Shown here: positions 6,816 through 60,420 of the stretch, piece by piece
Position numbering within the stretch: position 1 is the first letter of the stretch
Layout: the number at the start of each line of letters is the position of its first letter
IMG/VR virus record: IMGVR_UViG_3300042549_004702
Span: 1-60,420 of that record
DNA from: a virus
Lineage: Duplodnaviria; Caudoviricetes
Direction: 5' to 3' (one strand)
DNA: 60,420 bases
Position numbers and translations under genes: made by a program
Notes under the pieces: model-generated
Seen by the model: only the letters and a program-made list of their open reading frames with translations
Told to the model about the DNA's origin: nothing
The model's database searches: none

Positions 6816-6866
6816 GTCGTCTCCTGTGGTTGCGCGGCCCGATCACGAGCCGCTGATAGTTGATAG

Positions 6867-11344: not shown

Positions 11345-11662
11345 ATGATGAAATTGACAGAAATTGATCCTCTGATGATAGCGCGTCCGACTGTTGCGGT
11401 AGTAGATGGCAATTTGAATCAAGCATATCTTCTTAGTCAATTAATTTGGACGGTAAACGATCGTTCAGAAGATGCTGAATGGCATAATTTTGACGCTGAA
11501 GACTTTGCCAATCAAATCGGGATGTCTTATGAGTGGCTTCGTTCTCAGGCACAAGATTTAGCCAGGTATGTGTTTTTTGGTTGGCGTACTTGGAATAGGC
11601 CACGACCGATAATTCAGTTTAATTTGCACTTATTCTATCAGTCCCTTGAGGAGAGCAAATGA
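11345..11662 (+). CDS. Initiator-like N-terminal wHTH protein
   Basis: Similar to the N-terminus of the next gene (MKLT..., LLSQLIW versus MLSQAVYW). Confidence 0.55.
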   Translation: MMKLTEIDPLMIARPTVAVVDGNLNQAYLLSQLIWTVNDRSEDAEWHNFDAEDFANQIGMSYEWLRSQAQDLARYVFFGWRTWNRPRPIIQFNLHLFYQSLEESK

Positions 11663-12534
11663 AGCTAACCAAGATCCTTAGCAGTCCGATTGCTTTTCAT
11701 CGATGCCTTGCAGAGTTGGCCGGGTCGGTGACATCTGGCTTGATGCTCAGTCAGGCCGTGTATTGGATGGGAAAGACCAAAGATCCGGATGGATGGTTCT
11801 GGAAGACTCAGGACGACTGGTTGGAAGAGACGATGCTCAGTCGAAAAGAGCAGGAATCTGCTCGTCGTCGGCTGAGAGAGATCACTTTTGAGGGGGAATC
11901 TTTGTGGTGTGAGCAGCTGCGTGGCGTACCGGCAAAGCTTTATTATCGAGTCGATATGGACATACTAGAACGCCTCTTAACGGCAGACCAGTATGCCCAA
12001 AAGGAGCAATCCAGTATGCCCAAAAGGGGCATACTAGAAAGCCCAAAAGGGGCATACAAGAACGCCCAAAAGGGGCATACATTCTTATTAGCAGAGACTA
12101 CTACAGAGACTACATCAGAGAGTACGGCAGAGAGTACGACAGAAACCACGGAACCGGCGCGCGCGCCGAGACCTCTTCACGTAGTCGAGAGTGCAGACAT
12201 TGACAGCTTAGGCGACGCATTCGACGAAGCCTACCCTGGCATGTTCAATCAGTGGGGAAAGCTGAAAGACATGCGTGAGCTTGTCAAACGCCTGAATGCG
12301 AATGCATCGCACGTACGAGAGTTTCCATCATGGCTCAAAAGAGCCTACCCCCTAAAAGCGAACAATCACTTTGCGTTCATGGATCTCTTCCCCGAGTTCG
12401 TGAAGCAGTCACCAAAGAAAGCGACTAAGCCTGTCTCCACTTGCGGCAAGTGTGATGCCGGGTACGTCGTCAACGATCAGGGGCTTGCGGCTAAATGCCC
12501 TTGCCAGTCACCACGTCAGGCCAAAGCAGTCTGA
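11659..12534 (+). CDS. Phage replication initiator (lambda O-like)
   Basis: LSQAVYW...WFWKTQDDWLEET wHTH; internal iterons; directly upstream of dnaB. Confidence 0.85.
   Translation: MKLTKILSSPIAFHRCLAELAGSVTSGLMLSQAVYWMGKTKDPDGWFWKTQDDWLEETMLSRKEQESARRRLREITFEGESLWCEQLRGVPAKLYYRVDMDILERLLTADQYAQKEQSSMPKRGILESPKGAYKNAQKGHTFLLAETTTETTSESTAESTTETTEPARAPRPLHVVESADIDSLGDAFDEAYPGMFNQWGKLKDMRELVKRLNANASHVREFPSWLKRAYPLKANNHFAFMDLFPEFVKQSPKKATKPVSTCGKCDAGYVVNDQGLAAKCPCQSPRQAKAV
11991..12080. repeat. Four 23-bp-period iterons, probable replication origin
   Basis: GCCCAAAAGG(G/A)GCA at 11995, 12018, 12041, 12064 inside the initiator gene. Confidence 0.85.
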
Positions 12535-15630: not shown

Positions 15631-16218
15631 ATGGTGCGCGTGATTCGCGATCAGGATATCGACGATCCGACCATCGAAGAATACGTGCACTTCCCAACGC
15701 CCGGACGCCTCGCGCCGTCTGTGCCAGTAGTGGCACAAGATCAGTCACAACCAGTGGCACAGTCAGTGGCACAAGCTCAGAATATCGAGTCTGTGCCCGT
15801 GACTGACTCGGTGGCACAAGGCCAAAATTCCGACCGTGTGACCAGCCCGTCACCGGTGGCACAATCGCCAATAATGCCGCCTGTGCCCGTGACACAACCA
15901 GTGGCACAGATACGTGTGTCACTAGTGGCACAACGGCCAAATCGGAGGTCATGTGCCACTAGTGGCACATTGGCGTTAAGGTCTGCTAAAATCAACAACT
16001 TACCGAAAGGCAAGTCTCACACTGTGCCACCACCAAAAATAGCGGGGCACGAGTGGCGACAAGCCGGTGCGGGATGGTCACTCTGGCGACGTGTGCCCAC
16101 AATTTCGGCGACAGGCAAGCGCACTTCTGAGCGCAAATATGTGCGATACATTACTCAGTCTGCAATCGAAAGGATCTACAATCGGAATGGAAAATCGAAA
16201 CCACAAACCAAGTCTTGA
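15631..16218 (+). CDS. Hypothetical protein with VAQ repeats and a basic C-terminal domain
   Basis: RBS present; the repeats coincide with a DNA 8-mer cluster. Confidence 0.6.
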   Translation: MVRVIRDQDIDDPTIEEYVHFPTPGRLAPSVPVVAQDQSQPVAQSVAQAQNIESVPVTDSVAQGQNSDRVTSPSPVAQSPIMPPVPVTQPVAQIRVSLVAQRPNRRSCATSGTLALRSAKINNLPKGKSHTVPPPKIAGHEWRQAGAGWSLWRRVPTISATGKRTSERKYVRYITQSAIERIYNRNGKSKPQTKS

Positions 16219-16412
16219 GGAGGTGCAAAGTTGGCCTGTGCCACTTCAGCAGCTCGAACTTGCAATGCTCTGTGACTCGCCCGTGCCACTAGTGGCACAG
16301 CAGGCACAAGATCACCTATTCGTGGAAATCTCCATCGACACACCACAGCTCATATGCCAATTATGGGAGGAACAAGAGAGAGCTCAGGCCGTCATTTGAC
16401 GGCCCGTGCCAC
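15720..16412. repeat. GTGGCACA/TGTGCCAC cluster with 18-bp palindromes
   Basis: 9 forward and 3 reverse exact copies; perfect TGTGCCACTAGTGGCACA at 15952-15969. Confidence 0.85.
16187..16399 (+). CDS. Hypothetical protein
   Basis: ATG in the 16067 frame; fills the gap in the operon. Confidence 0.4.
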   Translation: MENRNHKPSLEEVQSWPVPLQQLELAMLCDSPVPLVAQQAQDHLFVEISIDTPQLICQLWEEQERAQAVI

Positions 16413-28806: not shown

Positions 28807-30084
28807 ATGGCGTATCCAAGTTTTTCAGACGAGAAGATTGCGCGAATCATCGAGTGTTACCTGCGCAATAATCGAAACATTCAAAACACCAGCATCCAGC
28901 TTGAGGTGGGCTACAATGCAGTATCAAAGTATGTCCGCAAATGGCAAATGGGCCAGCTGTCCCACATCCAACTCCCACCATATTCAGACGCGCCGGTAGA
29001 AGTACGAGCGCAAATCGAGAACGTCGAGAGCATCAGCACTGGCGATATGCGACGGCAAATTGTATCGCTTCGAAAAGAACGTGATGATCTGATGCGAGAG
29101 CGTGAACAGCTGCAGAAGGTTGCAGCCTTCTTTGAGTTCGTCAAGGAAGCAAGGATGGTTGTGCCTGAGTGGGTGAGCAAGCGACCATCACGAGGCAGCA
29201 AATCGGCAATACCAACGGCTCTATTCTCAGACGTGCATCTTGATGAGGTAGTGAAGCCGGAGCAGGTCAACTTTGTCAACGCATACAATCGAGCCATCGC
29301 CGAAGAGCGCGTGAAGCTGTTCTTCGATAACACGCTTGAACTATCAAAAGACTACTTGCAAGGCTTCAAGTACGAAGGCTTCGTAATGCCACTTGGCGGC
29401 GATCTCTTCAGCGGCATCATTCACGAAGAGCTTGCAGAGACCAATGCAGCCACGATCTTTGAGAGCTTGCTTTACTGGGCGGAACCGATAGCATCAGGCA
29501 TTCGCAAACTTCGCGATACCTTCGGGCGAGTCTTCCTGCCCTGCGTGGTCGGCAATCACGGACGACGCAAGCACAAGCCGCACGCAAAGAATCGCGCGCA
29601 GGACAACTTTGATTACTTCTTTTGCCACCTGCTGAACAAGTTGCTTGCCAACGAAAAGGGCATTACTTTTGCCATATCAGAAGCCAGCGATCAGCCGTAC
29701 AATGTCTTCGATACTCGATACCTTCTCACGCACGGCGACCAGTTCAGAGGCGGCAGTGGCATTGCCGGAATGCTGTCACCGCTGATGATTGGTGACGCGC
29801 GTAAACGAGAGCGTGAAAGCGCAGTCCAGCGGCCTTACGACTACCTGGTGATGGGACACTGGCATCAGCTGGCATTCCTTCGCGGACTCATCGTCAACGG
29901 ATCGGTCAAGGGATATTGCGAGTACGCCTTTCAGTCGAACTTTCGATATGAGCCACCACGTCAGGCATTCTGGATCACTGACGCCCACCACGGTGTAACG
30001 ATTCAGGCACCGATTCACGTTGCCGCCAAGAACGAAAAGTACTCAGCCAGCACCGGCAATCAAGCGATAGTCTCTATGGGGTGA
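28807..30084 (+). CDS. Calcineurin-like metallophosphoesterase with N-terminal HTH and coiled coil
   Basis: SDVH, GGD, GNHG, THGD, GHWH. Confidence 0.85.
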   Translation: MAYPSFSDEKIARIIECYLRNNRNIQNTSIQLEVGYNAVSKYVRKWQMGQLSHIQLPPYSDAPVEVRAQIENVESISTGDMRRQIVSLRKERDDLMREREQLQKVAAFFEFVKEARMVVPEWVSKRPSRGSKSAIPTALFSDVHLDEVVKPEQVNFVNAYNRAIAEERVKLFFDNTLELSKDYLQGFKYEGFVMPLGGDLFSGIIHEELAETNAATIFESLLYWAEPIASGIRKLRDTFGRVFLPCVVGNHGRRKHKPHAKNRAQDNFDYFFCHLLNKLLANEKGITFAISEASDQPYNVFDTRYLLTHGDQFRGGSGIAGMLSPLMIGDARKRERESAVQRPYDYLVMGHWHQLAFLRGLIVNGSVKGYCEYAFQSNFRYEPPRQAFWITDAHHGVTIQAPIHVAAKNEKYSASTGNQAIVSMG

Positions 30085-30527
30085 AAATGACATCGAGGAG
30101 CAAAATTACAACCATCGAATCCGACGATCTCTTGACGTTTCGCGTATATCCAGAAAACAAGCGACTACACTTCGATGTATTTGTGTGGCCAAGTAGACGC
30201 AGGATGCGCGAGTACCTGAGAGAAGCAAGTCCTGGACTAAGCGTCTACCAGATACTGGCTTGTGTGCTATGGCCAACCAACGAAGCAGACCGTGCACGGA
30301 AGACTCAGCTTGGCGAGATCCATTTCAATAGACAGGACCTGGGGTCGGACACGATCTGTCACGAGGCTACCCACGCAGCCTTGAGATGGGCACGATATAT
30401 CGGCATTGATGTTGGCGAAGCAGGGGATGGCTCATCGGCTCCTGACTCCGAAGAGCTTGTCGCATACGCAGTCGGTACGATCGCGCACCAACTCGAGACT
30501 GTACTTGTCGATAAAAAGTACAAGTAA
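30081..30527 (+). CDS. HExxH metalloprotein
   Basis: CHEATH...EELVAY. Confidence 0.65.
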   Translation: MKMTSRSKITTIESDDLLTFRVYPENKRLHFDVFVWPSRRRMREYLREASPGLSVYQILACVLWPTNEADRARKTQLGEIHFNRQDLGSDTICHEATHAALRWARYIGIDVGEAGDGSSAPDSEELVAYAVGTIAHQLETVLVDKKYK

Positions 30528-30605
30528 CTTGTGGATTTTTATCAACGATGTCCTTGTGATGTAGTAATATCACAGAGCCTCATATGTTGAGGCGGAAAGG
30601 ACAAA

Positions 30606-31286
30606 ATGGAACTGACCACGTCACGACTGATATACCCAGACGCGCCTTCGGGATTGCTGTCTGGGTATTGTTCTATTTGCGGCCAGTACGACATCACGCA
30701 CTTCCACCGCAACGACCTACTGACTCCCACCTCGGCCAACCTCACGGCCATCTTCGACTTTCACCACGAGCACGTTTGCCGCTTCTGTTCCGCTATATGG
30801 CGAGAACCGAAGAAGTATCACCGTGCAATTTACGCCGATCACGAATCGGTGCTATTCCCCGTGATATCTGCGGAGACCGCATCATCGGAGCGTCCGTTAT
30901 GGGCCGACGTTATCCGGCAAATGCCGACAGACCGAGAGCGCGTTATCGTGCTCACCACAGATCCTAAGAAGCGAGTGTGGCCATTTGCGCGCATCAGCTC
31001 CGGTAATGTGGCGTGCATATACCTTCACGATCCATCGCGTGGAGTGTCGGGCAATACCTGGGTAGAGATAGCACGGCTGAGAGAATGCCTTGTGATCATC
31101 GAAGAGGCTTACGAGCTTGGATTTTCGAAGCCAGCGATCGAGGAGTCGCTATTCACGTCCTACAATCAACTACAGGCCGTAGGATTGGCCACAACAACAC
31201 GAATGGAGAAAGCCATATCATCGTATAGGGCCACTCCTGAATTCCTGCCTGCGCTCATTGTGGCGCAAAGAAAGGTAACACTATGA
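30606..31286 (+). CDS. csf1: Type IV Cas8-like large subunit
   Basis: Zn finger CSIC...CRFC, KKRVWP motif; first gene of the csf operon. Confidence 0.72.
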   Translation: MELTTSRLIYPDAPSGLLSGYCSICGQYDITHFHRNDLLTPTSANLTAIFDFHHEHVCRFCSAIWREPKKYHRAIYADHESVLFPVISAETASSERPLWADVIRQMPTDRERVIVLTTDPKKRVWPFARISSGNVACIYLHDPSRGVSGNTWVEIARLRECLVIIEEAYELGFSKPAIEESLFTSYNQLQAVGLATTTRMEKAISSYRATPEFLPALIVAQRKVTL

Positions 31287-32719
31287 CCACATCAAACACT
31301 GGGATAATCGCGCCGTACCGATTCACGGCAAAGGCCACATCCACGGTTGCCCACGGAGAAGCCGGAGCCAACTCGACCGGGGCCAATAACACGACACTCT
31401 TTGCCCGGGAGTTGACATTGCTTCAGCGTGACCAGCTCTCGTACAGCAGCGACAAGGCGCAAGCGGCGATTGAATCACTGATGAACGTGATGCCGATCAC
31501 CGAGTCGTCTGTCGAGTTCCTTCGAACGCTATCAGGCGGCGAATTGATCGCGACACTATTTGCTGCTCAATTTCCGATCATTTATCGCGGCGAAGGAGAA
31601 GGACTATTCGCCGGACTCGAGCGTTACCAGTACCTGACAACGCGCCTGACTGACTCAGCCGTAGCTTGCACTACGCTTGCAACTGCGTGGGCGTACGTCT
31701 CGCGAAAGCTGAATCTGACCGCGCCATCAGCCTCGGCGCATATGCCGTTGATGGCACTCTTTGCACTGCCGAAGCCGATACAGGCGGCTGCGCTTGCGTC
31801 AGTCCTGAAAGCTCCTGAGATGGTCGTTATGGGCGCGCGAATGCTAGCCGAAGGACTCAAGGCCACTAACTGGAAATACGCAGAAGCCGCAGATCGAGAG
31901 ACCGAAGAGAAGGCTCAGTACAACGTGACATCTACGCAGCTTCTCGAGTTGTCGGCGAATAGGGGCAGCGTGCTAGCCGTGCGAATCCCTGCGATATCGG
32001 GCAACTCGCTTCGCCACAACATACTACGCGCACCAGGTGCGACGCGCCTTTTGTCGCATCTTGGACTTGGGCCGAATCAAACAATGGTACCGATCGCCGT
32101 TGAGCGGTTCCTGTACTCTGGCGGCAACACCGTCAAGGGCGCGAAGGCTCCGGGGGCGGCGGATCTACTAGAAGCAAAGGTGCGTAGTCACTATCCGATC
32201 GTTGACGCACTTGGCGGATCGTTCGATATGTTCCTGCTCACTCGGTCGCAGGTCAGCGTAAATAGCTGGATAGTATGCCGGGAGAATAACTGGATCACGG
32301 AGCGTAAGACAGAGGGAAGCATCGGATCCGATGTATCGATCTTCGATCTTATCAGCGAGGTGACACGTACTCGGTCAGGCATTGGCGGCAAGGACAAGGA
32401 GTCGGGACAGATGATCTTTGCCTACGAAGCTTTGGCCGCTCAGACAGAGATACTTGTAGAGGTCAGCTTCCAGCCATACACGCAGTTTGTCACGATTGGC
32501 GCGGTGATGCAGGCGTTGACGGACTGGAACACGGAAGGCGCGTTTCTTGGCGCGAAGTCGGCGCAGGGGCACTCGCAGTGGTTGCCAGACTTCCCGGATG
32601 ATGATCGATGGGCACTTGCTGCCGACTACATCGCACACCTCGACAAGAACCGAGAGACGTTGCGCGATGGACTCATCAAGGCCACATTCGGAACGGAGGT
32701 GCAGCTTTGTGGAGCGTAA
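31283..32719 (+). CDS. csf2: Type IV Cas7 backbone with a ~180-aa insertion
   Basis: STVAHG...NTTLFARE, IPAISGNSLRH, LYSGG, TRTR, QMIFAYE, LGAKSAQGH. Confidence 0.88.
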   Translation: MTTSNTGIIAPYRFTAKATSTVAHGEAGANSTGANNTTLFARELTLLQRDQLSYSSDKAQAAIESLMNVMPITESSVEFLRTLSGGELIATLFAAQFPIIYRGEGEGLFAGLERYQYLTTRLTDSAVACTTLATAWAYVSRKLNLTAPSASAHMPLMALFALPKPIQAAALASVLKAPEMVVMGARMLAEGLKATNWKYAEAADRETEEKAQYNVTSTQLLELSANRGSVLAVRIPAISGNSLRHNILRAPGATRLLSHLGLGPNQTMVPIAVERFLYSGGNTVKGAKAPGAADLLEAKVRSHYPIVDALGGSFDMFLLTRSQVSVNSWIVCRENNWITERKTEGSIGSDVSIFDLISEVTRTRSGIGGKDKESGQMIFAYEALAAQTEILVEVSFQPYTQFVTIGAVMQALTDWNTEGAFLGAKSAQGHSQWLPDFPDDDRWALAADYIAHLDKNRETLRDGLIKATFGTEVQLCGA

Positions 32720-33447
32720 TGCACATTCCAGAGCTTGACGAGTATGGCGATCGTATAGCGGCTCTCGAGTATGAGCCGCTCAAGGTCACGGTGACGACGG
32801 ACTCGCCCGTCAGCTGCAATGATCCGATATCGCTTGACGGAGTGTTGGCATACGCAATGGTCACGGATGCACTCAAGGGACGGCCTTTTCCGCAAGGAAA
32901 GGGCCCATACTGGCAGCCGCTTCCGCTCCATTGCGCAAAGCTGATTGAGGGTTTGCCGCTATGGTCAAGTACCGACTTTGTACCGACCAACCTTCACAAG
33001 CGAATGACTCACATCCACAGACGGACGGCGGATAACCCGTACGCAATGATCGGCCTGATGCGATCTGCCTACGACAAGCGACCGCGCCGCTTCCCGTCTT
33101 CGGCCGCGGGGCCGTATATGGACTATCGAGTACCAGAGCGTCGTTACGTCGCGGAGTCGTGGTCGGCATTGTGTCTCGGCAATCTTGAAGAGGTGCGACG
33201 ACTTCTCACGCTTGTTGCGACTTTTGGCAAAGGCGGCAAGCGTGGGTCGGGATACGTTCGGCAATGGACGGTTGAGCCGGTCGCAGACTTTTCATTCTAC
33301 ACGCACGATGGCCGCGCTTTGCGCCCAGTGCCTATTGGTGCCACTGAAACAGCGTGGGCAGGGGTAAGGCAAGGGTGGACTCCTCCCTACTGGCTCAAGG
33401 AAACGTGGCTGCTTTGTCAGCCGTCAGATGTGGCATCGATATTATGA
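32719..33447 (+). CDS. csf3: Type IV Cas5
   Basis: LDGVLAYA, PLPL, Gly-rich FGKGGKRGSGYV, RPVP, PPYW. Confidence 0.85.
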   Translation: MHIPELDEYGDRIAALEYEPLKVTVTTDSPVSCNDPISLDGVLAYAMVTDALKGRPFPQGKGPYWQPLPLHCAKLIEGLPLWSSTDFVPTNLHKRMTHIHRRTADNPYAMIGLMRSAYDKRPRRFPSSAAGPYMDYRVPERRYVAESWSALCLGNLEEVRRLLTLVATFGKGGKRGSGYVRQWTVEPVADFSFYTHDGRALRPVPIGATETAWAGVRQGWTPPYWLKETWLLCQPSDVASIL

Positions 33448-34247
33448 GCATTGTGAGCTGGGCCGATTACGGAATTACGGGTGAGGTCACGGTTGGACGA
33501 CCGGCAGCGGCAGCACCCTACAAGCGTCAGATTCAGCGACGCATCGACAAGGCATTGTCGGACATTGACCGCTTGGCCGTCTCCACAGACGGCCATTTTT
33601 ACTCGGCAATATCATTCGGTGCTGATTCGCTGGTCGCTGATCATCTGATGCGCCGCTACTATCCCGATCATCCGGCAATGTGGGTCAATCAAGGGCCGCT
33701 TGCTGAATGGCCTGACTGCCTGGCACTCAAGGATCAGATGGTAGCCAACGGTCTGCCGCTGGTCGAGTTGACACCGGACGTCACGCTCTACGATTGGTAT
33801 CGATTACACGGCATCCCGACGTCTTCGGCAATGGATAGCAAGGACGACAAGGAGCTGAACGAAGCGTTGATGTACGCGCCTATCCGGCGATACCAGGAGT
33901 CATCGGCGGCGCGTGGCTACTTGTGGGGGCTGAGGTATGATGGCGAAGGCAACCATCGTCGGATACTGATCCAAAGTCGAGGCACGCTATATCATCGAAA
34001 GACCGATGGTCAGTATGTGTGCTCTCCCGTCGGTCACTGGAGCAAGCACGAGATATGGGCATACATCGACCTGTTTGCGCTGCCCTACGCGAAGATGTAC
34101 GACATTGACCGACTCGAGATCCGCAACGGGCCGCCAATCGGCACAAGCGCGTTGAATATGGGGCGAATCGTGAAGCTGAAGCACAACTTCCCGCATATTT
34201 GGCGAGTAGCTGTCAGTGAGTTTCCCGAGTTGCAGAGGTACACGTGA
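33444..34247 (+). CDS. cysH: CysH/PAPS-reductase-like protein (type IV-B signature)
   Basis: SFGADS PP-loop variant, WGLR, SPVGHWSKHEIWAYI, LPYAKMYD. Confidence 0.85.
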   Translation: MSIVSWADYGITGEVTVGRPAAAAPYKRQIQRRIDKALSDIDRLAVSTDGHFYSAISFGADSLVADHLMRRYYPDHPAMWVNQGPLAEWPDCLALKDQMVANGLPLVELTPDVTLYDWYRLHGIPTSSAMDSKDDKELNEALMYAPIRRYQESSAARGYLWGLRYDGEGNHRRILIQSRGTLYHRKTDGQYVCSPVGHWSKHEIWAYIDLFALPYAKMYDIDRLEIRNGPPIGTSALNMGRIVKLKHNFPHIWRVAVSEFPELQRYT

Positions 34248-34813
34248 CGCCACCGTACAAAATCATAATGCGATCGCATCCGGATAGAGATGACCTTGTT
34301 GAGCAGATAAAGCCGCTACTGCCTGAAGATTCGATGTATAGCAGAGATTCCGCTCGTGAAGGTGGACGAGTAAACTTCATCCGCGCTATGACTATGGCTG
34401 AGGGTGACGCTTGCTTGCATCTTGAGGACGATATCATCCTTTGCCATGACTTCATCGACAACGTGAACCGTGTAGTAGAGTATCGCCCAGGTACGGTGAT
34501 TCAGTTCTTTTCGCGAAGATCGGCAGACATTGACATAGGGTCGCGATACGAATCAGGACGCACCTTTTTAGGCGCGCTTTGCTTTTTCTTGCCGTGTGGA
34601 ATGTCACGCGATTTGTTGAACCATTGGCCAGCGTGGAAGGACAAGGACAAACACTTCGACGCGGTCGATTTATTCGTTGCCGACTACCTGAAAAACCAAA
34701 AGCTCAAGTACTGGATCGAGATTCCTTGCTTGGTTCAGCATCGACAGGTCGTGTCAGTCGTCGATAGTCGTCGATCCAAGTACCGCCAGACATCTACCTT
34801 TCTTGGCGAATAG
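34244..34813 (+). CDS. GT-A fold glycosyltransferase-like protein
   Basis: CLHLEDD, PCLVQH; GTGA overlap with the cysH stop. Confidence 0.7.
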   Translation: MTPPYKIIMRSHPDRDDLVEQIKPLLPEDSMYSRDSAREGGRVNFIRAMTMAEGDACLHLEDDIILCHDFIDNVNRVVEYRPGTVIQFFSRRSADIDIGSRYESGRTFLGALCFFLPCGMSRDLLNHWPAWKDKDKHFDAVDLFVADYLKNQKLKYWIEIPCLVQHRQVVSVVDSRRSKYRQTSTFLGE

Positions 34814-41853: not shown

Positions 41854-42071
41854 TCAAGTTTATTCGAGTACTGTGGTCATTCTTCGTGTACGGCGATGTG
41901 AAGCTGAACGTCTACAACGCGAGGTTTACACGATGCGAAGGATGCCCACAGATTCGAGTTACCAAGCGTGGTCTGTTTTGTGACGCTTGCGGATGCCCGG
42001 AAACGTCACTATCAGATCTTCGAACAAAAGCACGGATGAGGCTTTCAGCCTGTCCAAAGGAACAATGGTAA
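41841..42071 (+). CDS. Small Cys-rich protein
   Basis: CEGCP...CDACGC...CPKEQW. Confidence 0.6.
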   Translation: MLRIIKFIRVLWSFFVYGDVKLNVYNARFTRCEGCPQIRVTKRGLFCDACGCPETSLSDLRTKARMRLSACPKEQW

Positions 42072-42082
42072 GAGGAACAATT

Positions 42083-42832
42083 ATGACTGAGAGTAATCTT
42101 TACCCATTCGACGCTGCCGAAGTTGCAGTGTCATTTAATGCGCGACCGGGAGCGGACAATCCGGTGATCGTCTCGCACAAGCTACGCAAGCCAACGCTGA
42201 TGGAGCTGGTAGCACGCGATCGAGACGTCAATCTTGAGATCGTTGAGATATCACCACGAGAAGAGCAGATCGTCACCGACGATGAAGCAGCTAATGCACG
42301 CCTTTGGGACAAGCTGATACTCGGCGTCAAGGGCTATGCCGGTAATGCTCAGTGGGCTGAGATTCCCGACGGTGACAAGGCCGGAGTACGCACGGGACAC
42401 AAGACGACCGCAATCAAGGCTATGTATATTGGCGATTGCAGTATCGTCGGAGACATTGATTCAGAGGTCAGCCTGACGTCTGATACCTGGGTGATACGCC
42501 AGTCGATTGGCGATGTGGACAATCCGCAGTTCGTGATCGATCACACGTTGCGAGAGCCTACGGAATCGGAGCGCATTCAGTTCAAGCGATCTGCTAGCAA
42601 AGTGTCGTTTATTCGCGGCGGCAAGAAAACGCGTACGCGCATCGGTCAGGATCTGACAGCCTTCGTGAAGATGTACGACTTGCTGGTAGAGAGCATCATT
42701 GGCGGATCAGTCAATAGCGCAGAGTACACGTCATCGAACCGTCAGGCGTTTCTTGCGGCCATTGATCCGACGTGGAAGCGATTGATCGTGCAGACGCTGA
42801 TGAACGCAATTGAGGCGGCATTGCTGGACTGA
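42083..42832 (+). CDS. Tail assembly chaperone (G-like)
   Basis: GAGG RBS; lies between tail tube and tape measure genes. Confidence 0.7.
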   Translation: MTESNLYPFDAAEVAVSFNARPGADNPVIVSHKLRKPTLMELVARDRDVNLEIVEISPREEQIVTDDEAANARLWDKLILGVKGYAGNAQWAEIPDGDKAGVRTGHKTTAIKAMYIGDCSIVGDIDSEVSLTSDTWVIRQSIGDVDNPQFVIDHTLREPTESERIQFKRSASKVSFIRGGKKTRTRIGQDLTAFVKMYDLLVESIIGGSVNSAEYTSSNRQAFLAAIDPTWKRLIVQTLMNAIEAALLD

Positions 42833-43230
42833 GTAACGCTCTGGAGGCTTACTTTGATCGACAGATCCAAGCGTCAAAGCGAGTTGGTACGCAGCCCTGC
42901 CCGGGTGAAGAGGTCTGTCAGGTCATCGGCCCATTGGCACAACATCCTAACGAGCCAGTGGAAGCGGTCTGCGGAGCTTGCGCCAAGCGTGAGACGAAGC
43001 CGGGAATGCAGCCGCGAAACATTGCGGACGCGATCGGCGAGGCGTTGCAGTTGGACGAGCTACACGCACTCGGGGCCACGTTCCCGTATCCGGCAAGCCT
43101 GACCACGTACCAGTGGACTTGCTTACGAGCGTTGGAACGAGCCAGACAGAAAGAGCGTGATCGAGTACAGGTGCAGCAAACGCAGCACGCTGAAACAGAG
43201 CGAATGAAGGCAAGACTCGGAAGGGGGTAA
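42814..43230 (+). CDS. Tail assembly chaperone T-like frame, start unresolved
   Basis: The -1 frame is open from 42814 with no ATG near its start; ends 1 bp before the tape measure gene. Confidence 0.55.
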   Translation, partial: GGIAGLSNALEAYFDRQIQASKRVGTQPCPGEEVCQVIGPLAQHPNEPVEAVCGACAKRETKPGMQPRNIADAIGEALQLDELHALGATFPYPASLTTYQWTCLRALERARQKERDRVQVQQTQHAETERMKARLGRG

Positions 43231-54740: not shown

Positions 54741-55073
54741 ATGCCGACATTGCCATATCAGCCCAGCTACGTGATATCAGGACGACAACTTCAGAATGCC
54801 GTTGTGGACTACTCCGATGATCGTACTCGATTCGGCCGCACGAAGGCGGGACGATACTTTGAGTACGACTTGGAATTCAAGAATCGCCAGCTTGACGAGT
54901 TCCAGGCATTCCAGACCTTCTACAACCAGAACTTTCCGGCGACCGCCTTTGACTGGCTTGAGCCATATCAGAACGTGACGCATACTGGCTACTTCATTTC
55001 AGCGTTAGAGTATCAGATCAATTTCGACAATTCGATTGATTACAAGGTGCGAATTCAGACGACGACTACTTGA
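54741..55073 (+). CDS. Distal tail/gpM-like minor tail protein
   Basis: 110 aa; F-x-x-FY...AFDW-x-x-P pattern. Confidence 0.6.
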   Translation: MPTLPYQPSYVISGRQLQNAVVDYSDDRTRFGRTKAGRYFEYDLEFKNRQLDEFQAFQTFYNQNFPATAFDWLEPYQNVTHTGYFISALEYQINFDNSIDYKVRIQTTTT

Positions 55074-55204
55074 CGAGGATGTTGGTTCTTGGTATCCTTT
55101 ACTCGAAATTTGAGGCTATCAAGTTTTGGGACTATCCCTGAGAACATGTAACTTTTGCCAAGACGCATGTTCTCAGGGTACTAAAATTCTCCCTGGCAAA
55201 AACG

Positions 55205-55237
55205 AAAAGGCCGCGCCATTATTGACGCGGCCTTTTT
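55205..55237. terminator. Bidirectional intrinsic terminator
   Basis: AAAAGGCCGCG-N10-CGCGGCCTTTTT between the convergent arms. Confidence 0.85.
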
Positions 55238-55262
55238 GCTTTGTTGGTCGATAGCTACTATC

Positions 55263-56360
55263 TCAGATCCTCATCGGCATCACGATATACTGGTAATCGT
55301 AGTCACCGTCATCTGTGGGTCTCATCACGATCTGTGACGCACTGTCCTTGTAGTCGATGGTCATATTTACAGCATTGCAAGCGGTGAAGAAGTCGGCCAC
55401 GTACCCAGACTTCAGCCCTATCGACTGACCTATCAACGCTTCCGGGACGTTTGACGGCACATCCTCGCCAGCGTCTCCCACGTCCTGAGATGCAGCCGAT
55501 ATACTCACGAGGTCGCGATTCATCGTCAGCTTGACCGACGATGACTGAGCGTCTGCAACCAACGCAACTCGACGTAACGCAGACGCAAACTCTTGAGCGT
55601 TGACTGCGATCCGCTCAGGATGATTCGCCATCACAAGCCGATAGTTAGGGAACTGACCAGCAAGTACACGGCTGGCAATGACGCGCTTGCCGACCTCAAA
55701 GAACACCGTAGTGTCTTCGTATCCGATCGATATAGTGTCCGATGACGACGCCAGTTTTGACACAAGGTCGAGTGTCTTGGCGGGAATCAGCACGTCAATA
55801 GGCGCGCCTTCGTAGTACACGTCACGCTCGATGTATGCCATTCGGTGACTGTCTGTGGCGACCATTCGCGCCTTGCCTTCGGCCAGTTCAAACTTGACGC
55901 CATTGAGCGCGTATCGCGATTCTTCCTTCGATGCGGCGAACTGTACGCGATCAATCATTGTGCTGAGAATCGATGCAGATATCGGTAGCAGGGAAGAAGG
56001 AGCAGTGCGCCTGTCGGGATATCCGTCAGGGTGAGTTGTCGAAAGCCTAAATCGGCTGCGCTGGCACTTGATCACGGCTTCGGTGTCGTTCGTGGTAATC
56101 GTGATCTCAGCGTCTGGCAGTGCCTTTACGATGTCGTGAAAACGCTTTGCGGGAATGCACGCTGATCCTTCGCTATCGATCGTCGCATCAGCGAAGGTCG
56201 CGATATGCACGTCAAGGTCTGTAGCTCGAAGATTCAATCCCCCACTCGTTGAGGATATATGCACATTTTGGAGTATCGGAATTGAGGACTTGCGCTCAAC
56301 TGCGCCTTGCAGGAATGCGAGTTCTTTGAGGAGTGATGATTTGCCTATTCTGAAGTTCAT
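55263..56360 (-). CDS. dnaN: DNA polymerase III beta sliding clamp
   Basis: IPIL, ATDLD, SRYALNG, ATDSHR, GQFPNY, IVMPMRI. Confidence 0.96.
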   Translation of the reverse strand: MNFRIGKSSLLKELAFLQGAVERKSSIPILQNVHISSTSGGLNLRATDLDVHIATFADATIDSEGSACIPAKRFHDIVKALPDAEITITTNDTEAVIKCQRSRFRLSTTHPDGYPDRRTAPSSLLPISASILSTMIDRVQFAASKEESRYALNGVKFELAEGKARMVATDSHRMAYIERDVYYEGAPIDVLIPAKTLDLVSKLASSSDTISIGYEDTTVFFEVGKRVIASRVLAGQFPNYRLVMANHPERIAVNAQEFASALRRVALVADAQSSSVKLTMNRDLVSISAASQDVGDAGEDVPSNVPEALIGQSIGLKSGYVADFFTACNAVNMTIDYKDSASQIVMRPTDDGDYDYQYIVMPMRI

Positions 56361-56587
56361 TTGTTGTCGTTTCCTTTTGTGTTGTTGAGGTTGTCGGTGT
56401 CGAGTGAGTCCGGCCAGTCGGTATCAGATATCTCGATACCTGGCATTGTCGATATGTTGACCGCCGGTTCGGACTCGTTGTAGGTCTGAGTGATCGTCAC
56501 TCCGTTGCCCTTGCCGTGATTGATCAGTAGCCCCGTGATTACGCCCATTGCGTAAATAAAGATCAGGGCTGCGGTAGTTGTGTCCAT
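56357..56587 (-). CDS. Small single-TM protein with acidic tail
   Basis: MDTTTAALIFIYAMGVITGLLI; stop overlaps the dnaN start. Confidence 0.55.
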   Translation of the reverse strand: MDTTTAALIFIYAMGVITGLLINHGKGNGVTITQTYNESEPAVNISTMPGIEISDTDWPDSLDTDNLNNTKGNDNK

Positions 56588-56616
56588 AGTGAATAGCCTT
56601 TCGTGTAGTGGCCGTT

Positions 56617-57291
56617 TTAGACCAGCAGCAGCCCGTAGCCAAACGCTTTGCCCGTGCCTATACCATCGCATAGGGCAAGCCTGAAGTCGTCAGCGTTGGT
56701 GACGCGAAGTGTTCCGGCAAAGTCGATGCTGGTGAAGGTCATTCGACGGTCGCCATATCCGCTGAGGCTCGATGCGGTCACGAGCTGGCGACCGATCTTG
56801 TGTTCAGGCTGTCCGCACTTGCTGAGATGGAGAACCTCAAAGCCTGACTGTTCAGACTTGCGCTTGAGCCAGTCGTGCCAGCCGGACTCGTCTCTGATGG
56901 CGACTCGCTTTCCGTTGATGCCGTTCTTGCTGGATAGTCGCTTGGTGGGATTGCCGCGAAGGAGGAAGGGCATTACCTCGTCAGTGGTGATAGCGTCGTA
57001 CCTGGAAGCGATGCTGGCGCACGACGACTCTTCGATATTGTCGAAGTAGTCGAACGGTATACCATTGGCAGACCAGTCAGGCAGGATGCGTGACTGGACG
57101 ATGATCCGCGGGCGGTGGAGAGTGTCGTCGGTCTCGAGTCGATAGAGGACTCCGAAGTGGCGGCGTGACTCTTCGATGTTCGGCATCTCCGGGAAGGCGC
57201 GCATCAGTCGCCGATGAAGCGCGTGACAGTCTTCAAGCTCCATCTGTACGATGCGCCGTGTGTGGTTTGGGTATAAAACCGAGACGAACAA
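56617..57291 (-). CDS. cas6e: Type I-E-like Cas6 (Cse3/CasE) endoribonuclease
   Basis: HALHRRLMRAFP, VLYRLE, VQS-x-x-x-PDW, LRGNPTKR, WLKRK, G-loop GIGTGKAFGYGLL. Confidence 0.92.
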   Translation of the reverse strand: MFVSVLYPNHTRRIVQMELEDCHALHRRLMRAFPEMPNIEESRRHFGVLYRLETDDTLHRPRIIVQSRILPDWSANGIPFDYFDNIEESSCASIASRYDAITTDEVMPFLLRGNPTKRLSSKNGINGKRVAIRDESGWHDWLKRKSEQSGFEVLHLSKCGQPEHKIGRQLVTASSLSGYGDRRMTFTSIDFAGTLRVTNADDFRLALCDGIGTGKAFGYGLLLV

Positions 57292-57355
57292 TGTGGTGAT
57301 CCTTTCTGTGTGAGAGGCTGGAAGTCCTGATTTTACTGCATTATTGTCATTTCCC

Positions 57356-57434
57356 TATTTACTAAATAGTGGTTTAGTAATACTAGGTTGTTTTGGTTTA
57401 GATATGGCTTAGTAAAGTCATTTAGTAAAGTCAT
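57356..57434. promoter_or_regulatory. 11-6-11 inverted repeat plus a 13-bp tandem repeat (recombination site or operator)
   Basis: TATTTACTAAA-TAGTGG-TTTAGTAATAC; TTAGTAAAGTCAT twice at 57409 and 57422. Confidence 0.55.
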
Positions 57435-57720
57435 CCCGCGACACATTGGATCTGCTCAGCACCTCACGGGCCTTGCTTATCCAGATCTCATCTTTGATGG
57501 CTTTGCTTACTAATGCCTCAGCCAGCAAACAGTGAAGATCGTACGACGACGCAAAGAGTGTCGCGTTCTCCAAGTGTGGCACGCTTCCACTCCTAGAGCT
57601 GAAGTTGTCGCCGCACCATCCAATCGGCTCTCCCTTCGGCCCTTCGATAGCAGTGCCCCAACCTCTAGGTCGAACAACGTATGGGCCAGTCGTGCACGGT
57701 CTTTTTGTTTTCTTTGCCAT
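57418..57720 (-). CDS. Hypothetical phage protein
   Basis: GAGG RBS; TTGPY...ENATLFASSYDL. Confidence 0.6.
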   Translation of the reverse strand: MAKKTKRPCTTGPYVVRPRGWGTAIEGPKGEPIGWCGDNFSSRSGSVPHLENATLFASSYDLHCLLAEALVSKAIKDEIWISKAREVLSRSNVSRDDFTK

Positions 57721-57721
57721 A

Positions 57722-57919
57722 CTACCTCGTCCTTTCGTTTTCATACTCAATCGGCCAGTTCGTAAGCTCTCGCTCCAACTCGGCAATCCGCGACTTCAAC
57801 GATGCGATCTCTGCCGCTTGCATCTCAACCACGCTTTCAAGATAGTCAATCGCCATCCACGGGTTGAGCTTCTTGGCTAGTGCCATTCGCTTTGCCGCTT
57901 CCTCTTCGATCGTTGCCAT
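57722..57919 (-). CDS. Small coiled-coil protein
   Basis: GGAG RBS; EIASLKSRIAELE. Confidence 0.6.
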   Translation of the reverse strand: MATIEEEAAKRMALAKKLNPWMAIDYLESVVEMQAAEIASLKSRIAELERELTNWPIEYENERTR

Positions 57920-57946
57920 TGCGTCACGTCTCCCGACTCGGTAAGT

Positions 57947-58834
57947 CTAGCCAACTTTGAGAAAATCACCGGACGACTCGTCCGGCCTATTGTGCAAGTA
58001 TCGATCGGTGATTGAGATCGACGAATGACCCAGCGTTGAGCTGACTAGCTTCAGCGGCGCGCCGTGGTCGAGTGAGTGTGTGGCGTGGCTATGCCTGAAC
58101 CAGTGCGGCGAGAGCTTGTCCGTGATGCCTGCGCGCTTCGCCGTAGCCTTGACGATACTCCACGCCCTCTGACGGGTGATCGGAAAGATACGCTCGCTAT
58201 TCTCTGCCCCGTCACGAATATCCTGCAACGCTGACACAAGCGTTAGCGGTATCTGTACCACTCGCGTCTTGCCGCCTTTGCCGAATAGCGTGACTTGGCC
58301 TTGCTCCGGCTTGACGACCAGATCCGCCCAGGTGATCGTTACCACTTCCGATATGCGGCCTGCCGTGCGATACATCATACGGATGAGTGCCTTGTCGCGA
58401 GGACTCCAAGCCGCCATCGTAAGCCTCAGTACCTCCTCTTCGGTCAGGATGCGTTCGTTGAGGGTATCCTTGCTTTGAGGTGCTCTCAGCAAAGCTGCCA
58501 CGTTGACGCGCACATATCCGATCTTGTGGCAGAAGCTGTACAACGACTTGACCGACGCTATCCGCTGCGCCTGAGTTGCCGGACGCATCGACGAGAGCGA
58601 CTCGGTGAAAATCAGCAGGTCATTCAGCGTCATCTCGCAGATCTGGCGACCAGTCACTTCGAAGAGGCGACGCACTGATAACTGGTACTGGTACACGGTC
58701 TTTGCGTTGCGCTTCGTCGCCAGCCATAGCGCGATGACCTGATCGTCATTCGCGGCATCAGCTACGGACATATCACCTGCATTGCGGATGAGCTGCCGTG
58801 GCTGTTCTGGTTCGTATCTCTGGATATTCGACAT
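57947..58834 (-). CDS. Tyrosine recombinase (XerC/D-like size)
   Basis: GRISE, GKGGK, HWFRH, LGH, TDRY catalytic residues. Confidence 0.93.
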   Translation of the reverse strand: MSNIQRYEPEQPRQLIRNAGDMSVADAANDDQVIALWLATKRNAKTVYQYQLSVRRLFEVTGRQICEMTLNDLLIFTESLSSMRPATQAQRIASVKSLYSFCHKIGYVRVNVAALLRAPQSKDTLNERILTEEEVLRLTMAAWSPRDKALIRMMYRTAGRISEVVTITWADLVVKPEQGQVTLFGKGGKTRVVQIPLTLVSALQDIRDGAENSERIFPITRQRAWSIVKATAKRAGITDKLSPHWFRHSHATHSLDHGAPLKLVSSTLGHSSISITDRYLHNRPDESSGDFLKVG

Positions 58835-58837
58835 AGC

Positions 58838-59461
58838 TCAGTTCCCTTTTCCCAAGATATCCGTAACTGTCTTCTCGACATCCGCATAGACAACGTCGTA
58901 TGGTCGATCGGCATCGATGAACATCAGTTCGCCTGTCCACGAATGCGTATACTTCGCCGGATCGCGTCGAATAGCTTCGTACGCTCCCCACGCTCGAAAC
59001 AGTTCTTCACGTTCACGATCCGTCATTGATCGCTTCTCGCGATCCTCAATGCGTCTGCATATCGTGTCAAAAGGCGCGTAGAATATGATCGTAGCTGACA
59101 CTGATACGCTGTTCATCGCCACGTCGTTCAGTTCGATCAGCCAGTCAAGATCGACGTTGCCAGACTTGCCCTTCGCGCTTCCCTGGTAGACCATCGTTGA
59201 CAGCGGCCCACGGTCGCAGATGATGTGGTCGTCTTCGAGCCATTCGCGGACCTCCGCCATATGCAGACGGCGATCAGCGCAATAGAGCATCGTCTGCGTC
59301 GTCACGTCAGCGTGTCGCGAGGTGGCCAGATCGCGTATTGAGCCGTCAAATGGCTCACTTGTTGTTTCCACATCTAGCGCGATGTAGACAGCACCGATAA
59401 CGCTCGACTTGCCGATGCCATCCGGCCCTTCAAAGAATATGAGTTTATGCTTCTGGTTCAT
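58838..59461 (-). CDS. tmk: Thymidylate kinase
   Basis: FEGPDGIGKS, LYCADR, ICDRGPLSTMVYQG. Confidence 0.9.
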   Translation of the reverse strand: MNQKHKLIFFEGPDGIGKSSVIGAVYIALDVETTSEPFDGSIRDLATSRHADVTTQTMLYCADRRLHMAEVREWLEDDHIICDRGPLSTMVYQGSAKGKSGNVDLDWLIELNDVAMNSVSVSATIIFYAPFDTICRRIEDREKRSMTDREREELFRAWGAYEAIRRDPAKYTHSWTGELMFIDADRPYDVVYADVEKTVTDILGKGN

Positions 59462-59768
59462 TGCGATCCTTTCTTGCTTGTGAGCGTTCGATTGCCTTGG
59501 TGAGCAAGATACGCGTATCGTCGTCTGTTGCGTCAACAGGCATTTTGTGACCATCGAGAAGTCTGACGATTTGCGCCACGTCTCGATCTTCATTGAGGTC
59601 GTAAAGACCTGCGTAGAATGACGGAATAGTAACGGTCACTGAAGAGCTTGAGTCAGTGTCTGGCGACACCGCGAAGTGAAATCGAAGTTCGTATGCAGTG
59701 CCGGATTCGGTCAGATCGCGCACCGGATCAAGCGTGTAAGTTGTGGTTGTTTGCATTGTGATAGTCAT
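59445..59768 (-). CDS. Hypothetical protein
   Basis: AGGA RBS; overlaps the tmk start. Confidence 0.6.
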   Translation of the reverse strand: MTITMQTTTTYTLDPVRDLTESGTAYELRFHFAVSPDTDSSSSVTVTIPSFYAGLYDLNEDRDVAQIVRLLDGHKMPVDATDDDTRILLTKAIERSQARKDRNEPEA

Positions 59769-59868
59769 TGTGCTTCCTGTTTTCTCGTCGTCAGGATGGC
59801 CTACAATCGATTATTGCAAGCCATCCCAGTGGTTAGTATGAGCGGCCAAACTGGCCACGCGCTCAACC

Positions 59869-59952
59869 TCAGTATCCTCCACCGTCGCTGCCGTCATCTC
59901 TCGTCCACCACATCCACAGAAGCGCAACGATAAATCCACCGATGATGATCAT
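59869..59952 (-). CDS. 27-aa membrane micropeptide (not in ORF track)
   Basis: ATGA overlap; MIIIGGFIVALLWMWWTRDDGSDGGGY. Confidence 0.4.
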   Translation of the reverse strand: MIIIGGFIVALLWMWWTRDDGSDGGGY

Positions 59953-60413
59953 CTTGCACCTCCGTTGCAGCCGTCGTTAAATGCCGACTCGACGACGCGC
60001 ACCAACCACATCCCAAAGTACGCGCGCTGATGAGGATTGCCGCTGATCGAGTACGCGCGCACGAGTCCAGCCAACGTCATATTCGGGGCTTCGTCGTGCC
60101 ACGCTGCCAACCTGATGTCACCGATGATCGATGATCCGGCAATCGAGTACTGCACCGCAGCCGATGCGGACTCGTGGACGAAAAACGCATCACGCGATCC
60201 GCCGACGACGCGCAGGTATTGCACAGCGTCTACCGGCTGGAGGTATCCGTATGCTCTGCCCTGGACGATCACAGATCGGCGAAGCGGCTGATGCGTGGTG
60301 ATCGTTTCCGGCCGATAGACGCACACCGGCCCTCCGGGTGCATCGAATGACTGGGCGTGGGCGGGAATAGCCAGTGCGACTATCCCAAGTATCGTTGCGA
60401 GTATTGCTTTCAT
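59949..60413 (-). CDS. Secreted hypothetical protein
   Basis: Signal peptide MKAILATILGIVALAIPAHA-Q; GAGG RBS. Confidence 0.7.
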   Translation of the reverse strand: MKAILATILGIVALAIPAHAQSFDAPGGPVCVYRPETITTHQPLRRSVIVQGRAYGYLQPVDAVQYLRVVGGSRDAFFVHESASAAVQYSIAGSSIIGDIRLAAWHDEAPNMTLAGLVRAYSISGNPHQRAYFGMWLVRVVESAFNDGCNGGAR

Positions 60414-60420
60414 AGTCCTC
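60283..60420. repeat. Terminal overlap, copy 2
   Basis: Matches 1-138. Confidence 0.95.

Follow-up and report, generated by a model that had tools for sequence, protein, structure and literature searches.

A type I-E-like Cas6e encoded apart from any CRISPR array in a tailed phage that carries a type IV-B cassette

Type IV-B is the one CRISPR-Cas subtype for which the source of the RNA and the function are both still open, as stated in two reviews (PMC8175902, PMC7038947). Loci of this subtype that contain a Cas6 enzyme are on record as rare: Pinilla-Redondo et al. give 12 instances (PMC7038947). Type IV-A, according to PMC8175902, uses Csf5, Cas6 or Cas6e-like enzymes together with arrays of its own, and a IV-B cassette of an archaeal virus has been described with a mini-array, the available excerpt of that paper mentioning no Cas6 (PMC10848311). 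Phages can also carry one half of a Cas6-repeat pair, as illustrated by the RNA anti-CRISPRs (Racrs), solitary phage-borne repeats that soak up host Cas proteins (PMC10651486). Here, we describe a stretch of 60,420 bases, in the following called the window, that makes up one IMG/VR record of a tailed phage (IMGVR_UViG_3300042549_004702). The window contains cas6e (56617-57291, minus strand), which appears to encode an endoribonuclease of the type I-E Cas6e/Cse3/CasE kind with 224 amino acids (aa), and, 21.8 kb away, a type IV-B cassette (30606-34813). In the repeat RNA, Cas6e enzymes cut where the hairpin ends on its 3' side, at the base of the stem, and they remain associated with their product. 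The gene had been noticed in a sequence-only reading of the window, and the background on Cas6e and type IV given there agrees with what the consulted parts of PMC8175902 and PMC7038947 say. The locus is a natural pairing of cas6e with a IV-B cassette that makes the RNA source of type IV-B testable; it does not by itself demonstrate a new mechanism.

Sequence, residues and predicted fold together confirm the assignment of the protein as a full-length Cas6e. The family PF08798 covers residues 1-224 with model positions 1-221 of 223 (E = 1.6e-41; 143.4 bits at a cut-off of 25), the Cse3-like model TIGR01907 (casE_Cse3) scores 79.8 bits (cut-off 45.2), and the general Cas6e models of PADLOC reach E = 1.8e-40 and 137 bits, whereas the two PADLOC models for type IV Cas6 enzymes give only 33 and 25 bits. 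In a search of PDB sequences, the protein aligned from end to end with Cse3 of Thermus thermophilus (1wj9, 2y8w; E = 1.3e-13), with H26 placed on His26 and H23 on Tyr23. We take His26 to be the catalytic residue of the Thermus enzyme, in which Tyr23 is presumably catalytic as well. H26 and the glycine-rich loop (G-loop) GIGTGKAFGYGLL, with G210, G212, K215, G218 and G220, are unchanged across 26 homologues. At position -3 from the catalytic His, where Thermus has a Tyr, the closer relatives usually have His or Gln, and H23 is therefore normal for this branch of Cas6e. The AlphaFold2 model (mean predicted local distance difference test score, pLDDT, 84.6; predicted template modelling score, pTM, 0.82; low confidence only at residues 166-183) has the two-domain ferredoxin-like fold of Cse3, and its top Foldseek matches are the Cse3-RNA complexes 3qrp, 2y9h and 2y8w (E of about 1e-17; template modelling score, TM, 0.71-0.76). 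Among predicted viral structures in BFVD, a single match was obtained at E <= 0.001, an unnamed viral protein of 187 aa with a TM of about 0.5, and PHROGs has no family for the window Cas6e.

The start of the gene deserves a comment. Many gene callers use M17, resulting in a protein of 208 aa. The TTG start regains the N-terminal strand of the family (MFVSVL as compared to MYLSRL; strand E2-6, block mean pLDDT of 93), and a Shine-Dalgarno-like GAAAGGA (57306-57300, minus strand), read from the sequence, lies 8 nucleotides (nt) before it. Both the full-length Cas6e with an N-terminal His motif and a C-terminal G-loop and the ribosome-binding site (RBS) of its own, as put forward by the sequence-only reading, hold up. 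The window protein thus shares with the I-E enzymes (TTHB192 in 1wj9, 2y8w and 3qrp; CasE of Escherichia coli in 4dzd) the families, the predicted two-lobed fold, the aligned His and the G-rich loop. It differs from them in being phage-encoded without a cas operon or array, in an identity of at most about 41-42%, in departures at 10 of 53 conserved columns, and in the loss of the usual C-terminal tail, the protein ending at GLLLV; as compared to Thermus Cse3, it also has His rather than Tyr at position -3. The window also lacks the context in which the family is usually found, namely a I-E cas operon beside an array of 29-nt repeats that form hairpins.

Indeed, neither Tandem Repeats Finder nor a direct-repeat scan revealed a CRISPR array in the 60,420 bases, and Rfam at E <= 1 returned no CRISPR-DR match. 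In the window, a covariance model built from 18 I-E repeats (R1) did not exceed 10.3 bits (E = 1.2), as compared to 46.7 bits (E = 5e-12) per repeat in the control array of locus L004, and family scans of the neighbouring open reading frames (ORFs) found no cas genes beside cas6e. The proposal that the gene has neither adjacent cas genes nor an adjacent array is thus well founded. The two ends of the window form a direct terminal repeat (1-138 = 60283-60420; 138 nt, 99% identity), and the window is probably a complete phage genome of about 60.3 kb that is circularly permuted or terminally redundant. If the genome is taken as complete, no array is hidden in a missing part. The IMG/VR record is labelled 'linear' and 94% complete despite the 138-nt end repeat.

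The csf operon from which cas6e had been said to lie far apart is real. Judged by its sequence, the cassette, which is located on the plus strand between the genes for the large terminase and the portal, is of type IV-B: It comprises csf1, csf2, csf3 and a cysH-like gene, and cas11 is weakly seen. The first gene, csf1 (30606-31286; 226 aa), encodes a type IV Cas8-like protein (PADLOC PDLC01721, E = 7.1e-10) and has a homologue in G001, a second phage described below. It is followed by a gene for a protein of 478 aa (31283-32719) that matches type IV Cas7 of PADLOC (E = 2.1e-26), with the Csf2 core at residues 232-464 and a Cas11-like stretch at about residues 75-199. Since this stretch corresponds to a separate ORF of 147 aa in G001 (region C1:42963-43319 and 41898-42860), we read the window protein as a cas11-csf2 fusion. 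A profile of the window csf2 family (A2) matches Csf2 of the Mycobacterium IV-B complex 7jhy with E = 6.7e-8, and its positions 114-199 match Cas11 of the same complex weakly (E = 0.038). The putative fused form is common to a family of proteins of about 470 aa (59 database matches). The third gene, csf3 (32608-33447), encodes a type IV Cas5 (PADLOC PDLC01727, E = 5.7e-28; TIGR03116, E = 4e-12, below the curated cut-off), and its true start is probably near 32710 because the homologue in the related phage G008 has 245 aa. The NCBIfam equivalog scores are under the curated cut-offs. Directly after csf3 follow the cysH-like gene of the 3'-phosphoadenosine 5'-phosphosulfate (PAPS) reductase family (33354-34247; PF01507, 37.9 bits at a cut-off of 22.5), an ancillary gene that is characteristic of type IV-B, and a conserved cassette gene for a protein of 189 aa (34244-34813) with a weak 'glucosyltransferase' match (phrog_854, E = 5.4e-10).

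Several further observations concern the cassette. Proteins of 189-204 aa are encoded in the csf-cysH cassettes of the window and of the unrelated G001 (L002 7155-7769), after cysH in the former and between csf3 and cysH in the latter, and may be a further cassette component. Upstream of csf1 (window region 28807-34813) lie an ORF of 425 aa that belongs to phrog_284 ('exonuclease') and an ORF of 148 aa; the former matches a phage exonuclease family and not Csf1. The position between large terminase and portal, which are expected to be late genes, is the same in G008 (C1:35493-40935). Repeat scans and a search with PF10040 found neither an array nor a Cas6 of that family in the window, so that the only Cas6-family gene is the one 21.8 kb from the cassette. 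No helicase match was obtained among the cassette ORFs, DinG not having been searched by name; the one ORF with a helicase domain among those scanned is located about 20 kb away (8924-10318).

A comparison with described systems shows how this arrangement differs from them. The cassette of the window resembles the type IV-B cassette of Mycobacterium sp. JS623 (7jhy) in having csf1, csf2, csf3 and a cysH-like gene but no array and no adjacent Cas6; it differs by the fusion of cas11 to csf2 and by its location between terminase and portal genes of a tailed phage. In the window, the Cas6 is of the I-E type, 21.8 kb distant and on the other strand; the 12 IV-B loci on record with a Cas6 (PMC7038947) may include some like this one or like that of G001. 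With type IV-A, the window shares the combination of a type IV effector and an RNase of the Cas6e family, but it contains no array and no type-IV-specific Cas6 (33 and 25 bits, see above), and no DinG was seen in the cassette, for which no search by name was made. Finally, Racr phages carry the repeat without Cas6 and the window carries Cas6 without the repeat; in both cases, one half of the Cas6-repeat pair resides on a phage, the anti-CRISPR role of the window gene being putative.

The evidence for a link between cas6e and the cassette comes from the distribution of viral Cas6e genes. Two pattern scans of IMG/VR, which detect only Cas6e proteins with the chosen motifs, identified 21 other viral loci with a Cas6e relative, i. 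e. 22 viral records including the window. A previous scan of viral contigs with a single Cas6e protein had found no relative, and patterns based on an alignment were needed. In 18 of the 21 loci, a I-E array is present within the flank, and two more (L222, L223), in which the sequence stops about 1.9 kb beyond cas6e, show synteny with L219, a I-E locus that has an array. The remaining locus is that of G001, which has no array and contains homologues of csf1, csf2, csf3, the 189-aa gene and cysH. Thus, the window and G001 are the only ones among the 22 viral records in which Cas6e is encoded outside a I-E locus, and both are csf-cysH phages. The profile A2 matches one of the 21 other records, again G001, and a tblastn search with 12 csf-module proteins against 162 other Cas6e loci (1.78 Mb) found nothing. 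These observations are suggestive of a non-random pairing of orphan viral Cas6e with csf-cysH.

In G001, cas6e belongs to the csf-cysH operon: On one strand, the csf-cysH genes are followed by a methylase gene, a gene for a Cas6 of the PF10040 family, and finally cas6e and a strong terminator hairpin. This part of the operon (L002 8437-10001) encodes an N6/N4 DNA methylase of 268 aa and the second Cas6 of 282 aa (PF10040, 51.7 bits), and the phage thus combines two distinct Cas6 enzymes with the lack of an array; its record is estimated to be 77% complete. In the same incomplete record, R1 reached at best 12.9 bits, and a 26-nt repeat consensus with up to 8 mismatches matched neither G001 nor the window. 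The two phages share 12 ORF matches and little else. Weak PF10040 matches in G025 and G026 (13.8 bits, restricted to the region of the G-loop) were rejected as Cas6 and read as csf3, which lies just downstream of csf2 in these records.

The two orphan enzymes apparently are not sisters and may represent separate captures. In a tree of 63 rows, the window Cas6e and its 96% twin stand alone, their branch measuring 1.56 changes per site as compared to a median of 0.5 for the end branches, and the G001 protein pairs with the I-E Cas6e of the Chloroflexi locus L104 (54% identity; Shimodaira-Hasegawa-like approximate likelihood ratio test support 88, unstarred). This was a quick tree that included the even-numbered genome loci L052-L130 with proteins below 300 aa and 21 of the 36 P-proteins and left out the metagenome loci L132-L211. 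Its backbone is unresolved, and the statement that the two are not sisters relies on the pairing of G001 with L104 and on the fact that window and G001 never group. Of the phylogeny that the sequence-only reading had called for, the separate placement of the two proteins stands, and the deeper relationships do not emerge.

No repeat was found on the phage, and by elimination the repeat hairpin of a host type I-E precursor CRISPR RNA (pre-crRNA) is therefore the likeliest substrate of the window Cas6e. In the cellular relatives of the enzyme, this repeat is almost fixed (GTyGTCCCCACGCnCGTGGGGGTGAACCG): 52 of 80 genome Cas6e loci from several phyla have arrays with near-identical 29-nt repeats in the fetched flanks, the general form being GTCCCCAC-NNNN-GTGGGG-GTGAACCG, also written GTCCCCAC...GTGGGGGTGAACCG. 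As for the host, eight of the 120 listed DnaN homologues are named by organism, and six of these eight are from Blastocatellia or Blastocatellales (40-45% identity), a hint that the phage may have its host in the Blastocatellia (Acidobacteriota). Seven of the 80 cellular Cas6e loci are from metagenome-assembled genomes of Blastocatellia, and an array of this repeat type is listed for all seven (29 nt in six of them, only a 14-nt stretch in L089).

Based on these findings, the reading that we tentatively prefer, albeit with less than even confidence, is that Cas6e is an accessory RNase with the I-E repeat RNA of the host as its target and shares a pathway with the IV-B cassette. According to this proposal, cas6e is one of the accessory genes of a freshwater phage lineage with genomes of about 60 kb, in which it comes first in a run that also contains a small ORF and dnaN. 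The protein would be a working I-E-derived, hairpin-binding, metal-independent RNA endonuclease that cuts or holds the repeat RNA of the host, and it would share a pathway with the array-less cassette of csf1, cas11-csf2, csf3 and cysH. Two ways to put this into practice can be envisaged: (i) Cas6e might pass processed host crRNA on to the Csf complex, or (ii) Cas6e might withhold the host crRNA from Cascade while the Csf complex soaks up RNA. Scavenging or sponging of the crRNAs of other systems has been proposed for type IV-B, as the consulted parts of PMC8175902 and PMC7038947 report, and our reading fits this idea. It is tempting to go further and to speculate, though we regard this as doubtful, that phages have joined a captured I-E Cas6e to an array-less IV-B cassette twice or more and exploit the CRISPR transcripts of their hosts: Cas6e would cut the pre-crRNA, and Csf-CysH would take the products, either to deprive the host of its guides, which would amount to an anti-CRISPR made of several proteins, or to turn the spacer memory of the host on competing mobile elements.

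A number of observations weigh against the preferred reading. Seen from the csf side, the association is poor. The csf2 profile identified 31 other viral records, and a search for PF08798 in each of them detected Cas6e in one, G001 (two of 32 including the window), and in none of the five csf2-bearing records that are at least 90% complete. The co-occurrence of cas6e with csf-cysH across related phages, which the sequence-only reading had proposed to examine, is therefore visible from the Cas6e side and fails from the csf side, and even the former consists of two phages. The syntenic relative G008, in which 78 ORFs match those of the window at 30-90% identity and in conserved order, has the whole cassette in the same place; between integrase and dnaN it contains no cas6e but genes for proteins of 322 aa and 167 aa and a dCTP-deaminase-like gene in two frames. 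Since G008 has the cassette without cas6e, Cas6e is not a required part of type IV-B. In the window, cas6e is separated from the cassette by 21.8 kb and located on the opposite strand; as it sits among replication genes and the cassette among packaging genes, co-expression of the two is not evident. When I-E crRNAs were expressed together with a Mycobacterium IV-B complex, they were not loaded into it, according to the review PMC8175902. The hint at a host in the Blastocatellia comes from one gene, dnaN, and a comparison of 2,466 I-E spacers from the fetched loci with five phages yielded, among the matches listed, only chance matches of 13-21 nt. Finally, the 10 departures of the window Cas6e concern 53 columns that are at least 85% conserved, whereas 149 comparators depart at 2 columns in the median and at no more than 7, and they include A113G and S223L at positions that are 100% conserved elsewhere. 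Because of these changes at conserved columns and the lost C-terminal tail, the RNA specificity of the enzyme may have shifted away from the canonical repeat.

The divergence and the short C-terminus could reflect either the release from contacts with Cascade or a new RNA target, and we have no preference between the two. The former would be in line with an alternative that we consider unlikely, a stand-alone anti-CRISPR: The phage Cas6e would compete for the I-E hairpins and misfit the Cascade of the host so that crRNA loading fails, and csf-cysH would be cargo without any connection to Cas6e, merely finding favour in these same hosts. The idea builds on the retention of the cleavage product that is typical of Cas6e. 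It accounts well for the fact that cas6e has an RBS of its own and leads a run with dnaN on the strand opposite to the distant cassette, for the missing phage repeat, and for the fact that the cassette works without Cas6e in 30 of the 32 records; the long branch, the changes at family-invariant positions and the short C-terminus are expected if contacts with Cascade are not needed. It leaves unexplained, however, why both orphan viral Cas6e genes are found in csf-cysH phages and why the gene is part of the cassette operon in G001. Moreover, no known acr or aca gene is present beside cas6e, where the neighbouring ORFs have no family match, and no spacer match indicates pressure by type I-E on the phage.

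A new RNA target might be provided by the phage itself. The sequence-only reading had pointed to hairpins near 6820 and 7090 as possible Cas6e substrates. These hairpins exist, as minus-strand copies at 7123-7096 and 6853-6826 that are identical over 28 nt and consist of a G+C-rich stem of 8 bp, a UGAU tetraloop and GCAACCAC, followed by the RBS AGGAGA. A third copy (7379-7356, minus strand) covaries and has a stem of 10 bp; the copies are spaced by 270 and 252 nt. G+C-rich stem-loops in front of RBSs were seen on the minus strand at 7379-7356, 7123-7104, 6853-6834, 4791-4779 and 2502-2485, and several of them share flanks (left flank CTATCA or CAATCA, right flank ACAAC(CAC)). Cas6e could cut these stem-loops (7123-7104, 6853-6834, 7379-7356 and 4791-4779) in order to trim or stabilise early mRNAs or to generate non-CRISPR guides for Csf. 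The arrangement of a stem, about 8 nt and downstream RNA recalls a Cas6e cleavage site, and an enzyme as divergent as the one of the window might well have changed its specificity; the identical copies, the covariation of the third and the common left flank would suit such a function. We nevertheless consider this scenario improbable. G007, a 100% complete genome without Cas6e, has a hairpin, ACAACCAC and an RBS at 3374-3391, and comparable elements in which a hairpin precedes an RBS occur in G008 and G012; the hairpins are therefore not specific to phages with Cas6e. R1 lists none of the window hairpins at E <= 10, and the spacing of the copies fits small genes rather than spacers. In addition, the Cas6e of G001 departs at only one of the 53 conserved columns; with 52 columns kept, it probably recognises the canonical repeat, although none is present in G001. 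That the hairpins at 6820 and 7090 are specific substrates of Cas6e is accordingly not supported; they look like ordinary intergenic elements of these phages that are possible but unsupported substrates.

The gene also bears the marks of long retention. A metagenome contig of 1,238 bases (L132) is 96.2% identical to the window at the DNA level, and of the 25 codons of cas6e that differ, 24 are synonymous and one is non-synonymous (S136A), a pattern from which purifying selection on cas6e is deduced. The cluster of Cas6e proteins at 90% identity has 28 members on contigs of up to 67.8 kb, and H26 and the G-loop are constant in 14 aligned rows of the phage lineage. In addition, three further studies have runs (X4, record 13; X5, records 18 and 19; X6, records 25-27) with contigs that cover cas6e with a likeness of 85-99%, and the records of these runs name freshwater habitats; the contigs of run X3 do not cover 56720-57463, from which no inference is drawn. 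The codon pattern, the cluster and the cover from the further studies lead us to conclude that cas6e is kept by selection in a recurring phage lineage. The best matches outside this lineage, in I-E loci of Chloroflexota, Acidobacteriota, Bacillota and other phyla, have identities of 33-42%. Given that no homologue found outside the lineage exceeds about 41-42% identity, Cas6e is by its sequence an old and fast-evolving resident rather than a fresh capture. That cas6e might be a passenger without a role in the phage, acquired by chance as a piece of the I-E locus of a host, could be suspected from the variable slot, which holds other genes in G008, and from the host-like I-E loci in which the other Cas6e genes of 'viral' records lie, but with the intact catalytic residues, the 24 synonymous changes against one, the old residence and the recurrence in 28 cluster members and in three further studies, this is very improbable.

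The surroundings of cas6e are as described by the sequence-only reading, which had placed the gene between a recombinase region and dnaN. Downstream, on the same strand, follows a small hydrophobic ORF, probably for a membrane protein (56357-56590; 77 aa, ATG at 56590), that has no family match; a form of 104 aa begins at 56671 and overlaps cas6e. The gene for the beta clamp of DNA polymerase III, dnaN (55263-56360, minus strand), is the last gene of the run headed by cas6e, and a hairpin that resembles an intrinsic terminator (55205-55236, minus strand; 14 pairs followed by a T-run) closes it. Upstream of cas6e lie ORFs for 122 aa and 65 aa without family match and then the tyrosine integrase gene (57947-58834). 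No PHROGs family was found for these two ORFs, for the small ORF between cas6e and dnaN, or for the ORFs 59445-59768 and 59949-60413. The A+T-rich intergenic leader of cas6e (57307-57417, minus strand) varies between strains. At 57409-57434, a 13-nt tandem (TTAGTAAAGTCAT, two copies) is located, and TTAGTAA-like words are present; a scan of the minus strand upstream of cas6e with the sigma-70 consensus revealed no promoter-like site. In run X4, 67 nt of the leader are swapped for 25 other letters (joint 57384/57452), and run X5 has an insertion of 394 letters between 57417 and 57440.

In the genome as a whole, the plus strand carries replication genes (helicase, methylase, DnaB, ThyX) and the packaging and structural block with the small and large terminase, the portal, a P22-like coat protein and tail genes. 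The minus-strand arm, which wraps around the genome ends, encodes DnaN, the tyrosine integrase, thymidylate kinase, dCTP deaminase and RecT. The window is devoid of tRNA genes, and none of the GenBank phages was matched by positions 55000-60420 in a megablast search. A promoter-like element, TTGCAAAATAACTGTTGACAATAA, is present three times on the minus strand (7739-7716, 6877-6854 and 5298-5275), and two of these copies are followed by a conserved 54-nt leader (7688-7635 and 5248-5195; 93% identical); the elements are probably early promoters. In addition, a 23-nt tandem, GGCATACCAGAATGCCCAAAAGG, occurs in about four copies at 11958-12150 inside the ORF 11659-12534, and a palindrome, GTGCCACTAGTGGCAC, in four copies together with 45-nt repeats around 15720-16304. 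Iterons or a replication origin in the vicinity of the dnaB gene are possible explanations for these repeats.

In a narrow search of the literature by phrase, we found no paper on a lone phage Cas6e, and as far as this search shows, the window would be a first case of a phage Cas6 without its repeat. If the link with the csf genes turned out to be spurious, cas6e would still be a candidate for a protein anti-CRISPR that is derived from a Cas protein. The window and the unrelated G001, in which cas6e is part of the cassette operon, are compact natural systems in which ideas on the RNA source of type IV-B can be tested. If phages have indeed joined Cas6e to the IV-B cassette in order to exploit the transcripts of their hosts, these transcripts would be the long-sought RNA source of type IV-B.

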